A stretch of DNA of 64,000 nucleotides from contig OX597840.1 of NCBI GenBank assembly GCA_951406725.2, forward strand, positions 21,328,001 to 21,392,000. Direction: 5' to 3'. The DNA is from Octopus vulgaris. Taxonomy: Eukaryota. Each line of letters starts with the position of its first letter. Within the stretch, counting starts at the first letter, position 1. The translations under genes and the position numbers were made by a program. This document shows, piece after piece, positions 7,603 through 56,695 of this stretch. The notes under the pieces were generated by a model that was not told the DNA's origin, did no database searches, and saw only the letters and a list, made by a program, of their open reading frames with translations.

Positions 7603-7760
7603 TTTATTTAAAAGCAGCAGAAAATTCAACAAAACTTGTTACTCGGAGTTTCACGTTGCCATTCGTTGGACAGTTTTTTCTAGCAAAAACTGTCAGACGA
7701 ACGGGAACGTGAAACTCAGAGTAACAGGTTTTGTTGAATTTTCTGCTGCTTTTAAATAAA
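7603..7760. mobile_element. Fold-back (Penelope-like pLTR) palindrome with a hammerhead-like motif in each arm
   Basis: ~77-bp inverted arms around a CTAGC centre; + arm reads ctgt CAGACGA acgggaacgt GAAA ctcagag TA acag; flanked by (TA)n. Confidence 0.7.
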
Positions 7761-8456
7761 ACATATTACTCTACCACTGGTTTTTGAGTACTCTTTTTTC
7801 CACCTTGTTTCACATTTATGTGTTTACTCCGGTATATATATATATATATATATATATATATATATATATATATATTATTTGTTATTTATGTATTGGTTTA
7901 TGTCTATCACTGTTTGAGTTGCATAATAGTGGTTTTATCTCTAATTTATATTTTATACAATATTACATATATAAATGCAAAACCGCTCTGCAGGCTGTAA
8001 CGGTCAACAAAATAGAAACAAAAATTTTAAAATTCATTCTTTCTGTGTGTCTCGGTACCAAAAGATCACTGGCCCTGTAGGGGGGCACTGCAACCCAGTG
8101 GTTGAAAACCCCTACTCGATATTATAGCTTAACTCACAGAAATAGCAGCTTAATCACTCCATTTAAGATGAAAGCGAAGGCTTGAAACATTAGGTTATAC
8201 AATCCTTACGACAAATAAACTAAGGGAACTCTTCTACTGGTCCCTTCCACCCTCTACACCTTCACTTCCCTGTGGAATCCCGATTTTGGATCATTGGTTA
8301 AAATTCGAAGAATTAAACTACATTAAACTTACAAATTACAATTTTGCTTTCAATTTTGTTTACAATAATGTTTTCTTTTGACACATTCTACCAGTATACG
8401 AAGTTTCAAATTAATTAGTTAACTAGAAAATTCCGTCCATCAAAAGGACTCCAGAT

Positions 8457-8684
8457 CAGTGGTTCACAGTAATTTTTTCTTTTTACCTATGGACCCCCTC
8501 GATTCTAATTACAGCCATTTGATGTTTTAAAATCCTATAAGATTTTCATAATTAAATATTAATAGGAATTGTATTTAAAAAATTGTTAAAATACTTTGTG
8601 TATTGTCGAAGTGTAACAAACTAATTAGACACAAAATTTAATAAGGGAATCTGATAAGGACCCCCTCCCACTTCCGGTTGAGAC
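8457..8684 (-). mobile_element. hAT-like MITE, same family as 37-359
   Basis: CAGTGGTTCAC start, GGTTGAGAC end, TSD ctccagat/caccagat. Confidence 0.65.
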
Positions 8685-9189
8685 ACACCAGATAAAAAGT
8701 CATGTCCAACTGGGGTGTCGTGACACCCTCGGGTATCGGAGACAGTGAGTTAAGGGTGCCATTCAAATTCAAATAACTGACACAATAAAATGTTAATAGG
8801 GGTGTTGTTTACTTTAAGGAATGGGAGATTGAATGACGAGGCAGGTCACAGAAACAGCAACCCCATTCACCACCACCACCAGCCCCTTTCAGTTGTGTTC
8901 CCTAAACCCGACACATATTTCTGAAATATTTAAATATATTTTTTCAAACCCGGCGCATCTTAGATCACATCATCCAGTGTGTACGTTTAAGACAGTAAGG
9001 TGTGATCTGAGGGAGATTTGACTGCTCTTTCAAGCAAATCGAGAGACCAGGTCGAGACTGTTTCACAGGTTTGTGAGTGAGTGTATATATTGAAGTACAA
9101 GGAAAAAAACAAATTAAAATGGGGAGGTGCTGGTTAGAATTACAAACACAACGGCTTTGAGGGATTAAACAGAAAGGGTTAACTTAGAA

Positions 9190-9565
9190 CACACACACAC
9201 ATATATATATATATATATATACACACATATATATATACACACACACACACATATATATATACACACACACACACACATATATATACACACACACACACAC
9301 ATATATATATATACACACACACACATATATATATATATACACACACACACATATATATATATATACACACACACACACATATATATATATACACACACAC
9401 ACATATATATATATATATACACACACACACATATATATATATATATATATATATATATATATATATACACATACATATATACACACATACACACACACAC
9501 ATATATATATTTATATATATATATATATATTATATATATATATATATATATACACACACACATAC
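9190..9565. repeat. (CA)n(TA)n compound microsatellite
   Basis: Direct inspection. Confidence 0.95.
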
Positions 9566-10087
9566 TTGTATCAACACGTTTATATACACGTAAGATGTAT
9601 ATAATTGAGTGCACGAAATATCTTAGGCTTCTTTTCAGTTTCCACCTACCAAATAAGCTCAATAAGCATTGGACGGCCCTGGGCTATAGTGGAAGACACC
9701 AGAGGTGCAATGTATATATATACAAACATACATACACGTATACACACACAAAAATGTCTATAATATACACACCCACACAAGGCACATATTTTAATAGTTT
9801 CCTGGCCTCAATCCGACCGCAACGTAAAACAATAAACAAATATAAGAACAAAGAATAATTAATTTAATTAAAATTTCTTGATTAATTAGATAGCGACATC
9901 TGGCGCACACACACGGTACCAATAAATGTCCGGTCCGTTAACTGGAATAAGTTCCGTAGTATAAGGGATATTAGCCAACCGAATATGGCTAGGGACAGGG
10001 CAGTTCCGTAGTGATTCGGGGGAAAGGCCTCTTTCCGTTTGAATAGCAAATGGCCTGAGAAAGAGATACAATACGAAGGTATAAGTT

Positions 10088-10610
10088 GCAGGCGTGGCTG
10101 CGTGGTGAAGAAGCTTGACTCCAAATCATGGGGTCATGGGTTCAGAGCCACTGTGTAGCACCTCGGGTGTCTTCCACTATAGCCCAGGACCGACCAATGC
10201 CTAATTGAGTTTATTTGCTAGGTGGAAAATGGAAAAAGCCTATATATATATATATATATATATCTTTCATCTAGTTTCAGCTCACGAGCTGTGGCCATAC
10301 TGGAGCACCGCCATTATATATATATATATATATATATATATATATATATATATGTTTTATGTGTATCTACATGAGTGTGTGTGTGTGTGTCTATCTTTGT
10401 GCTCGCCATCCACCACAGCCTGAACAGCCGGCGTTGGTTTGTTAATATCCCCATAACTTAGTGATTCGGCAAAAAAAAAAAGACCGATAGAATGAGTACC
10501 AAACTTAAAAAAAAACAAAACAAAGTATTGGAGGATTCGATTTGTTCGACTAAACCCTTGAAGGCCGATGCCCCGGCATGGCCACAAAACCAAAAACTGA
10601 GACGAGTCTA
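10088..10610 (+). mobile_element. SINE family A, diverged, with insertions in its internal microsatellite
   Basis: Head at 10088-10235 and body/tail at 10380-10610. Confidence 0.75.
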
Positions 10611-54982: not shown

Positions 54983-55035
54983 CATGTGAATCTTTAATGG
55001 AAAGAAGATTTAAAAACACTACATAGAAAGTGGAA

Positions 55036-55380
55036 GTGAATGGCTTAGTAGTTAGGGTGTTGGACTTGTGATTGTAAGATTGTGGTTTCAATTCCTGAAC
55101 CAGGTGACGCATCGTGTTCTTGAGCGAAACACTTCATTTCATGTTGCCCCAGTCCACTCAGCTGGCAAAAGGGAGTGACCCTGTGATGGACTGGCGTCCC
55201 ATTAGTGTTGGCAGCATGAAAAAAAAAAGCATTCAGTACTCAATGTAGAGTGTCTTTGGTAGGAAGGACATCCAACTTTAGAAACCATGCCAAAGCTGAT
55301 GCTAGAGCACAATGCAGTGATCCAGCTTGGCGGAACCTGTCACATTAGCCAACCCAGGCCAGAAAAACAGACATTACATC
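55036..55380 (+). mobile_element. SINE with a family D-like head and V-domain-like motif, joined to a family B variant tail
   Basis: CCCTGTGATGGACTGGCGTCCC resembles the V-SINE central domain (from recall). Confidence 0.6.
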
Positions 55381-55749
55381 ATGATGATGACGATGATGAT
55401 GACGATGATGATGATAATGATGATGATGACGATGACGACAACGATGATGGTGATGATGATGATGATGACTCATCAGTTTAATTGCCCAACTTATGAACTA
55501 AGGTTGGCAATTCTATGTGGTTTTCAACCCATTAGAAATAACAGGTAAATATCCTGCAAATCCTGCTCTAGCATCTTGAAAAAGAAGGTTAAATAATACT
55601 GGATGTTATTTAAAAGCTTAAAAAGAAAATAGAAAAGGATGGAAGGTCATAGCTGGAGAGTCTTTGGCCATAAACCTCATTATAGGCAGACTGTGCTGAT
55701 GGTGGAAGAACAACAACAGTAATCTTAAATCTACCCCCTAAATCTCCAA

Positions 55750-55860
55750 ACGAAAATATATTCCAGACTTCACCTTGACAAATTGCTTGATAAGATTCTG
55801 GAAAGGCTGCCAGTATCTGGATACGTATCTCTAAATAATGGTCTTCCAGGTGGGCACGGC
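55750..55860 (+). pseudogene. Possible degenerate CR1/L2-group ORF2 C-terminus
   Basis: F-RLHLDKLLDKILERLPVSGYVSLNNGL resembles FKxxLDKxLxxxPDxPxxxGY..NSL. Confidence 0.3.
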
Positions 55861-56438
55861 GCCAAAAGACTGGCACCGTTTCATATGTAACTGACAGAAG
55901 CAACTCTAGTAGTTCACTAGTTTGTTGGTATGACTCCAGAGATGTGAAAGGGTGGAATATGAACTCACAACATAAAGGATTAAAACTAATTTCTGTAAGG
56001 CACATAATGTGCCCATCTGTTGTTTCTCCTATGGCCTCACCCAAAATAATGGGACCACCCAAATAATGGGATCACCCAAATAACAGCAGCACCATTTAAT
56101 GCCGTAAGACATACCGTATGGAGTGAGGTACGCAAGTGTTAAGGCACACTTGTTACGTTTTTGAGTTCAAATTCCACCAAGGTCGACTTTGCCTTTCATC
56201 CTTTCAGGGTCAATAAATAAAGTACCAGTTTCGCACTGAGGTCGATCTAATCGACTTAATACCTTTGTCTGTCTTTATTTGTCCCTTCTATGTTTAGCCC
56301 CTTGTGGGCAGTAAAGAAATCTAAATGTTACATCACACCATTAGCAATTTGAAAGTTTTATAAAAAAAAAAAGATTTAATAACTTTTACTTGCTTCAATG
56401 ATTGAACTGTGGCCATGCTGGAGCACTGCCTAAAAGAG

Positions 56439-56695
56439 TTTAGCCCCAGGAGACATCGTCTCTAGCTGGCTATACGACACAATCTGTGTCCTTATATATT
56501 CGAACAAGAGAATCTAGCACCCCCACTCAGCTCAAAACAATTATTCTCTGCTGATGAAGAGAAATAACCCAGAAATCGCAATACACAGATATTGTTTTGA
56601 GCTGAGGGGAGGGGGGCTAGATTCCCTTGTTTGAAAATGTAAGGGCATAGATCATGTCGTATAGCCAGCTGGAGATGACATCTCTAGGGGCTAAA
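56439..56695. mobile_element. Fold-back palindrome whose spacer is a hammerhead core (56545-56589)
   Basis: ~105-bp inverted arms; tctctg CTGATGA agag aaataa ccca GAAA tcgcaa TA cacaga. Confidence 0.75.

Follow-up and report, generated by a model that had tools for sequence, protein, structure and literature searches.

Hammerhead-bearing palindromes in an Octopus vulgaris locus are probably folded-back stubs of Penelope-like elements

Does a ribozyme determine where a mobile element is inverted, or is it found next to the fold by position only? The question is raised by a 64,000-nt stretch of the Octopus vulgaris genome (contig OX597840.1, positions 21,328,001 to 21,392,000, hereafter the window), in which the first-pass annotation had described four unrelated long inverted repeats, all turning back at a type I hammerhead, and had proposed that ribozyme helices act as snap-back points producing non-autonomous hairpin-ribozyme elements. 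All four repeats, here E1 to E4, were recovered by self-BLAST of the repeat-masked window (E 2.7e-109 to 4.2e-37), with arms of 76, 144, 136 and 105 bp, respectively, and arm identities of 83–97% by arm alignment (Table 1). They are indeed mutually unrelated, since no pair scores clearly above its shuffles, the best cross-pair (E1/E2) being matched or beaten by 8 of 200. As had also been described, (TA)n adjoins E1, E2 and E3, while the flanks of E4 contain no (TA)n and no visible target-site duplication. Each of the four consists of a sequence and its head-to-head inverted, 5'-truncated copy, the orientation of E2 being assumed from its GAAA and palindrome.

Table 1. Features of the four fold-backs and of related hammerhead motifs in the window.
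Element	Feature	Coordinates	Strand	Basis or detail
E1	Inverted arm, tail absent	7603..7678	-	70/76 identical to 7685-7760
E1	Sense arm	7685..7760	+	arm alignment
E1	Type I hammerhead-like motif, stems I-III present	7688..7729	+	descriptor match, one core mismatch
E1	One-sided 3' extension (tail), then (TA)n	7761..7832	+	72 nt
E1 relative	Decayed, partial core and tail, without fold-back	25225..25371	+	score 72, 0/200 shuffles
E2	Inverted arm, (TA)n before	21237..21380	-	arm alignment
E2	13-nt loop ending GAAA; possible hammerhead 3' half	21381..21393	+	without CUGANGA core
E2	Sense arm, begins at 6-nt palindrome, then (TA)n, without tail	21394..21537	+	arm alignment
	Perfect-core minimal hammerhead, without fold-back	39793..39836	+	
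	Perfect-core minimal hammerhead, other PLE-like 3' end, without fold-back	45500..45555	+	
E3	Inverted arm, (TA)n before, ends at stem II C11.1	45662..45797	-	arm alignment, 132/136 identical
E3	Loop, sense-strand family sequence and hammerhead 5' part	45798..45883	+	
E3	Minimal type I hammerhead, C3 at 45861, core CUGAUGC	45855..45899	+	
E3	Sense arm, ends at family's short 3' terminus	45884..46019	+	arm alignment
E3	39-nt optional tail to family's long 3' terminus	46020..46058	+	loose ends
E4	Inverted arm, adjoins SINE-like repeat	56439..56541	-	arm alignment
E4	Hammerhead motif, forming the loop	56545..56589	+	CUGAUGA (56551), GAAA (56572), decayed stem II
E4	Sense arm	56591..56695	+	arm alignment

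A hammerhead had been claimed at every fold, and this is credible for E1, E3 and E4, each with a defect, but not for E2. The core of E1 reads CAGACGA on one arm (position 4 is not U) and CCAACGA on the other, and the E3 motif, with predicted cleavage after 45894, has an extra G ahead of a clean 5-bp stem II. E4, the oldest of the four at 83% arm identity (87/105), has an intact CUGAUGA...GAAA...UA core in its 49-nt loop, such a core being found in 17 of 20,000 shuffles, and a stem I of 5/6 pairs continuous with the arms (predicted cleavage after 56583); its stem II is broken and is not formed in the minimum-energy fold. In E2, no CUGANGA with fewer than two mismatches was found on either strand, and the only remnants are GAAA, a 6-nt palindrome and a triplet, so that its hammerhead call was inferred from the junction itself. 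The E2 arms are identical in 142 of 154 columns with flanking TA counted, and the previously annotated span, 21231-21544, takes in microsatellite. Single-sequence folds of the window motifs did not form the three-way junction in every case, and no hammerhead family was present among 150 of the 413 rows of an Rfam search (E up to 10) dominated by microsatellites.

The window contains further elements of both kinds. Both perfect-core hammerheads in Table 1 had been omitted from the first-pass annotation, and E3 sits in (TA)n behind one of them (45500-45555). Three more fold-backs of 100-450 bp (7500-7943, 10951-11247 and 31051-31292) have inner boundaries without a hammerhead call, the second having an exact 8-bp target duplication. 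Relatives inside the window were found for E1 (one copy, matching its tail at 80% over 60 nt, 25312-25371) and none for E2 and E4.

The suggested link to the pseudo-LTRs of Penelope-like elements (PLEs) is supported: each of the expected hallmarks, from the tail and the (TA)n target to the minimal hammerhead and the head-to-head inversion, is found here. Passages of Craig et al. 2021 (PMC8557442) describe a PLE insertion unit with an inverted 5'-truncated copy, a one-sided tail of 30-40 bp and a (TA)n bias, and passages of Arkhipova et al. 2013 (PMC3846280) describe head-to-head inverted pLTRs with a palindromic junction, for which self-priming was proposed. The window elements resemble these EN+ units (Penelope/Poseidon, Neptune, Nematis) in their inverted 3'-end copy, the tail at one end (39 nt in E3), (TA)n, and a junction that is very short or palindromic and variable per copy: the fold-back centre of E1 (7679-7684) is itself nearly palindromic, and a 2-nt microhomology (CG) links the inverted arm of E3 to the sequence that naturally lies upstream, the letters of which are known from loose ends at 45824. 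They differ in the length of the E1 extension and in the missing tail of E2. The hammerheads likewise resemble the metazoan PLE minimal type I motifs described in sections of Cervera and De la Pena 2014 (PMC4209133), which have an extra base between positions 9 and 10.1 and are also found as opposite-strand pairs 100-700 bp apart; the similarities include a short stem I, dispersed single copies, the extra base, G10.1-C11.1 (E3) and a short (near-)palindromic stem III. Unlike the motifs in those sections, ours have defects at position 4 (E1), position 9 (E3) and stem II (E4), E2 is coreless, and stem II of the 45500 and E4 motifs is apparently flanked on each side by an unpaired A.

None of 146 window frames (122 by complexity filter and 24 by hand) matches an RT or GIY-YIG Pfam, a search that also missed a PLE fragment at a control locus (L183, below); PLE membership of E1-E4 therefore rests on non-coding features and, as the elements have no ORF, no clade can be assigned. 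On these features, supported by arms, tails, (TA)n flanks, the great abundance of E3 and its two 3' termini, the locus-specific junctions and the recurrence of this architecture at minimal-hammerhead loci elsewhere (below), we consider it likely that the four palindromes are independent dead-on-arrival insertions of four PLE families, with the hammerhead near the fold by position only. Each stub would comprise the final 150-270 bases of its element and a head-to-head inverted copy, and the hammerhead would lie near the fold simply by being located within this retained stretch. The GIY-YIG nuclease of the element may nick DNA that is AT-rich or consists of (TA)n. Reverse transcription would then begin at one of two internal sites, which would account for the one-sided tail, and would halt early, after which the cDNA end, using 0-3 nt of microhomology, could re-prime on itself or on a sister strand and so produce the inverted arm.

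E3 is the one family that was followed beyond the window, using contigs and the four joints listed in them. Four runs from four organisms (X2, X3, X4 and X7, with X2 covered to about 80%) contained 8,504, 6,503, 2,417 and 4,239 E3-family contigs, the summed depth of which is not taken as copy number; an E3-specific pattern had no matches in metagenome and viral contigs, and a generic hammerhead pattern matched 115 loci in viral contigs. Two 3' termini 39 nt apart (46019 and 46058) were found in all four runs, with loose ends reading (TA)n past 46019 in 50, 59, 38 and 44 contigs and loose ends past 46058 in 60, 92, 65 and 68. The canonical A of the core accounts for 13-32% of depth and most depth has C at position 9, so amplification of the family likely did not need cleavage. 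The depth of bin 45790-99 relative to the next bin (0.31, 0.38, 0.40 and 0.40) corresponds to cover of only 4 natural letters, making the window's E3 junction rare. The four other joints listed between opposite strands, all with the depth of a single locus, lie at 45824/45868, 45842/45973, 45862/45951 and 45920/46025, with two of the eight ends and one of the four inner ends within the 45-nt ribozyme. A depth ramp at 45830-45860 might be taken for an accumulation of 5' ends ahead of the ribozyme but is likely an edge effect of a local 17-nt duplication in the E3 loop (45807-45823 and 45824-45840), and a depth step at 45900 is seen in X2 but in none of X3, X4 and X7.

These data bear on two other explanations. 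The palindromes resemble MITEs in being short and non-coding with long inverted ends in a TA context. Were they MITEs of TA-targeting DNA transposons, the arms would be terminal inverted repeats and the hammerheads would have arisen by chance or been captured; E2, symmetric between two (TA)n runs without tail or core, and the target duplication of the fifth window repeat at 10951-11247 fit such an origin. Against it stand the one-sided tails of E1 and E3, the copy-specific centres, the variable joints and two 3' termini of the E3 family, the E4 core, which exceeds chance, the restoration of the E3 core in variants, and the absence from E4 of the target duplication constant in MITEs. As an explanation for all four elements this is barely credible, and E2 is the only live MITE candidate.

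It is also highly improbable that the palindromes are copied from masters that spread as whole hairpins processed by their hammerheads, that is, are non-autonomous hairpin-ribozyme elements. Three control loci of one subfamily described below (L119, L144 and L213) do share one junction, 120-130 nt upstream of the ribozyme, despite unrelated 3' flanks, which raises the possibility of hairpin masters or fixed fold sites within PLEs. However, within the E3 family the window's junction has no measurable extra depth and the four other joints are scattered, which argues against a hairpin multiplying as a unit; close control relatives (L133/L137/L138 and L171/L172/L181) carry different junctions, the window hammerheads are all defective or coreless (in E4 the core is intact and stem II broken), and a long hairpin would be expected to bury arm-borne motifs in double-stranded RNA. 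Animal non-LTR retrozymes (PMC7229834; bioRxiv 10.64898/2026.07.22.740005) are likewise non-coding and PLE-related with a type I hammerhead, but they form head-to-tail tandem repeats (about 150-450 bp), every unit having its own hammerhead, whereas the window elements are single head-to-head fold-backs, and the window self-comparison revealed no direct repeat of any of them near its own locus and hence no head-to-tail tandem units. No new element class is supported.

Whether fold points nevertheless concentrate at the ribozyme, as had been claimed, can be judged against fold-backs at minimal hammerheads in metagenome contigs. Out of 115 metagenome loci, 88 were kept as AT-rich and 27 dropped as GC-rich chance matches; a fold-back was present at 31 of the 58 control loci with at least 300 nt upstream and at none of 25 GC-rich chance matches. 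Of 41 fold-backs, L143 (an unrelated inverted repeat) and L200 (the same locus as L150) were removed, leaving 39; these have 37 distinct junctions once L144 and L213, which share the junction of L119, are dropped, and 29 usable arm lengths (median 163 nt) without nine edge-cut loci and L148. One control family can be linked to a PLE protein, since the frame that precedes the L183 hammerhead shares 70% identity with the C-terminal portion of a protein containing RVT_1; Pfam, run on 16 of the 139 control frames, gave no match and missed this fragment. The inner arm end lies within -10..+45 of C3 in 4 of 39 controls and more than 25 nt upstream in 32 (median -94), and of the distinct junctions 4/37 fall at -10..+45, where 5.3 (weighted) to 8.1 (flat) would be expected, and 7/37 at -25..+45, where the expectation is 7.7 to 10.3. 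The ribozyme forms the loop in none of the 39.

The inner ends in the window do lie where they had been placed, at -9 (E1), about +19 (E2, assumed register), +23 (E3) and +33 to +40 (E4) of C3, and so strike four different parts of the motif; together with the 4 of 39 controls, this does not bear out a concentration of fold points. The chance of all four lying in -25..+45 is 0.0097, or 0.024 without E2, calculated from control arm lengths and each element's hammerhead-to-end distance and before allowing for selection. This coincidence, about 1-2% by arm length alone, counts against the truncated-insertion reading, as do the absence of tail and core in E2, the absence of (TA)n in E4 and the geometry of E4, which is matched by none of the 39 controls and resembles a snap-back through stem I.

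We therefore also considered that the palindromes are PLE stubs in which the ribozyme helices are nonetheless a real minor hot spot for fold points, through pausing of the reverse transcriptase at the foot of stem II or cDNA snap-back via a self-complementary stem I. The E4 geometry, the joint probability of 0.01-0.02 for the window, the shared arm end of E3, L173 and L226 at the 3' foot of stem II (C11.1/G12), those of L171 and L205 at C3, and the two of four E3-family joints with one end in the core (45862 and 45868) point in this direction, but the positional coincidences are post hoc, and the controls, with counts at or under expectation and no ribozyme loop, have no excess near the ribozyme. 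Such a hot spot appears unlikely, although a weak preference is possible because the controls come from other families and are blind to events destroying the core in both copies. In vitro, hammerhead mutants leave PLE insertion products unchanged (PMC11167929), and in main texts of mostly non-subscription literature, without supplements, we found no paper mapping PLE inversion points against the hammerhead.

Short palindromes bearing hammerheads on (TA)n are thus likely to be PLE remnants, and should not be classed as MITEs or new ribozyme elements. If transcribed, the stubs may provide ready double-stranded RNA for editing enzymes; Penelope is heavily edited in a lizard, according to a part of PMC5625713. 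In the relevant sections of PMC8557442 and PMC11167929, both the formation of inverted PLE ends and the role of the hammerhead are treated as unresolved. It is doubtful, though conceivable, that in some PLE families the hammerhead helices (stem II foot, stem I) direct the sites at which reverse transcription halts and doubles back; if this were true, thousands of genomic fold points would record the in vivo fold or cleavage of the RNA, and the ribozyme would gain a measurable role in the PLE cycle. The abundance of E3-like families makes fold points countable in a single long-read genome, and a ribozyme-linked hot spot, if found there, would be in vivo evidence of the motif shaping insertion.

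The four inverted repeats of the window, E1 to E4, are borne out by self-BLAST (E values of 2.7e-109 to 4.2e-37, far beyond chance) and by arm alignments, with a folding z of -20 for E4, and the first-pass annotation was also right that they are mutually unrelated in sequence and that three of them (E1, E2 and E3) adjoin (TA)n. The window is non-coding DNA of animal type (39% GC), cephalopod-like in appearance, with many microsatellites and SINE-like repeats. The extensions of E1 and E3 were missing from that annotation.

Palindromes of the window, their one-sided extensions and other opposite-strand joints of the E3 family
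Feature	Position	Arms (bp)	Identity (%)	Loop (nt)	Remark
E1	7603	76	92	6	
E2	21231	144	92	13	
E3	45662	136	97	86	
E4	56439	105	83	49	
E1 extension	7761-7832				3' side only
E3 extension	46020-46058				3' side only
E3-family joint	45824/45868				single-locus depth
E3-family joint	45842/45973				single-locus depth; two organisms
E3-family joint	45862/45951				single-locus depth
E3-family joint	45920/46025				single-locus depth

Other structures were also seen. E1 and its (TA)n runs lie in the loop of an older fold-back (7478-7971; 7500-7537 against 7906-7943, extending further at lower identity), which is a nested insertion. At 10951-11247, 84-bp inverted ends, 98% identical and bordered by a perfect 8-bp target-site duplication, belong either to a MITE-like element or to a Penelope-like element (PLE) insertion with duplication; GAAA, a 4-nt palindrome and a short stem close to the outer ends are, speculatively, a hammerhead remnant. 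Two facing SINE-like copies around a microsatellite form a 243-nt palindrome (82%) at 31051-31292. Short frames at 38061-38330 and 41834-42100, which gave no match in a Pfam search, have the look of LINE ORF2 3' ends.

A hammerhead had been claimed in every palindrome, and this holds for E4, whose loop contains an intact core (17/20,000 shuffles) yet a broken stem II, and, with defects, for E3 (5-bp stem II, C for A at position 9) and E1 (good stems, a mismatch at position 4, where C would best account for both arms as well as for a decayed relative that starts at 25225). It fails for E2, in which no core with at most one mismatch was found on either strand, so that the label is circular there. 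A descriptor scan of the window gave perfect-core hammerheads without a fold-back at 39793-39836 and 45500-45555, and at the inner boundary of three further fold-backs no hammerhead was called; the four of four had thus been picked out of seven fold-backs and five credible motifs. The motif at 45500-45555 has a 7-bp stem II, an unpaired A at both flanks and a weak likeness to that of E4 (1/200 shuffles).

E3 words occur in twenty runs from four organisms, and in the four runs compared, one per organism, 8,504, 6,503, 2,417 and 4,239 contigs fit when aligned to the E3 loop, sense arm and tail, making the family very abundant and dispersed. The canonical A at 45867 accounts for 31.5, 29.5, 13.2 and 16.4% of the depth there, and T replaces C at the predicted cleavage base in 7-21%, a change that remains permissive; the E3 motif is therefore a genuine minimal hammerhead with defects in most copies. 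Most depth (68-87%) carries C at this position 9, which is predicted to impair cleavage, and the minority with A offers an internal control of natural origin. Loose ends place the 3' termini at 46019, followed by (TA)n, and at 46058, 39 nt apart, and those at 45824 reveal the natural upstream letters, which overlap by 2 nt (CG) at the junction present in the window. The ratio of first-bin to next-bin depth (0.31, 0.38, 0.40 and 0.40) does not exceed the 0.40 given by coverage of the four natural letters alone, so this junction is not a multiplied form; as the other joints listed differ and have single-locus depth, the proposed hairpin-ribozyme element finds no support in the E3 family.

The proposed link to PLEs is supported, the 3'-side extensions, (TA)n and minimal hammerheads matching published insertions. 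As published, PLE insertions include an inverted 5'-truncated copy, a 30-40-bp tail and (TA)n bias (PMC8557442), and pseudo-LTRs carry minimal hammerheads of low activity, with opposite-strand pairs 100-700 bp apart (PMC4209133); inverted pseudo-LTRs and 3' extensions are also mentioned (PMC8969392), and PMC5625713 bears solely on editing. Retrozymes, in contrast with E1-E4, are described as tandem (PMC7229834; bioRxiv 10.64898/2026.07.22.740005). Each palindrome is most likely a truncated PLE insertion, in which AT-rich DNA would be nicked, reverse transcription would start at one of two internal sites and stop early, and re-priming with little or no microhomology would yield the inverted arm. 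Many control loops are tiny, which favours coupled fold-back, as proposed with self-priming for head-to-head inversions with palindromic junctions (Arkhipova et al. 2013, PMC3846280). The anole PLE enzyme is reported to nick and extend both strands, its two start sites bracketing the tail (PMC11167929), and the tail missing from the inverted arms of E1 and E3 therefore fits equally well a second round of priming, at the other of these sites. Insertion products in that system are described as unchanged by hammerhead mutants (PMC11167929).

As controls we used the 88 AT-rich loci, most with clear stems, out of at least 115 metagenome loci matching a generic minimal-hammerhead pattern (9/64 parts searched); they represent other families and hosts than the window's, and because the pattern demands that one copy keep its core intact, it misses events like E2 and favours long arms. 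Upstream of one hammerhead (L183), a frame that aligns at 70% identity (121 columns) with residues 407-527 of an RVT_1 protein (RVT_1 109-247) ties that family to a PLE protein; in our reading it looks GIY-YIG-like, with no Pfam call for that domain. Just downstream of another, frames that we take to resemble the PLE ORF N-terminus in tandem (L165:263-490 and L165:1-267, minus strand) had no Pfam match.

Fold-backs are the norm among the controls: of 58 loci whose upstream sequence reaches 300 nt or more, 31 have one, compared with 0/25 GC-rich chance matches. Loops were 10 nt or shorter in 15/37, fold points differed between close relatives, and microhomology was 0-3 nt at the six loci where a relative reveals the natural upstream letters. 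One junction, 120-130 nt upstream of the hammerhead, is common to three loci of one subfamily with unrelated 3' flanks (L119, L144, L213), which may reflect a hairpin master or a template whose 5' end is fixed. In two loci of a sister subfamily (L133, L138) the fold lies no more than about 10 nt from this site; contig ends cut the left arms.

That the ribozyme is a hot spot for fold points in PLE stubs, as the claim of recurrent inversion at the hammerhead implied, appears unlikely. Among 39 control fold-backs, 4 inner arm ends lay within -10..+45 of core position C3, 7 within -25..+45 and 32 further upstream (median -94), and none had the ribozyme as its loop; 4 of 37 distinct junctions fell in the motif, where 5.3-8.1 were expected. 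Among the four E3-family joints listed, which come from contigs and so from assemblies that break in repeats, 1/4 inner ends and 2/8 ends fell in the 45-nt motif, near the 17% predicted from length. The median length of the control arms is 163 nt (29 loci), and since E2, E3 and E4 have their cores 144-162 nt inward of the outer end, an arm of typical length stops close to the core; with the control lengths, 38-45% of arms in these three, and 14% in E1, would end within -25..+45. The joint chance for all four, 0.0097 (0.024 without E2), is compatible with geometry and selection, for one window chosen from a large scan and with four differing target sites allowed, and leaves room for a minor ribozyme effect. 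The best hints of such an effect are stem I of E4, which is continuous with the arms as snap-back through it would leave, and the arm ends of E3 and two control loci (L173, L226), which coincide at the foot of stem II.

In the literature searched, no work was found in which the inversion points of PLEs are mapped relative to the ribozyme. The pattern at the hammerhead was over-read, and E1-E4 most likely represent new families within a known kind of by-product of insertion.
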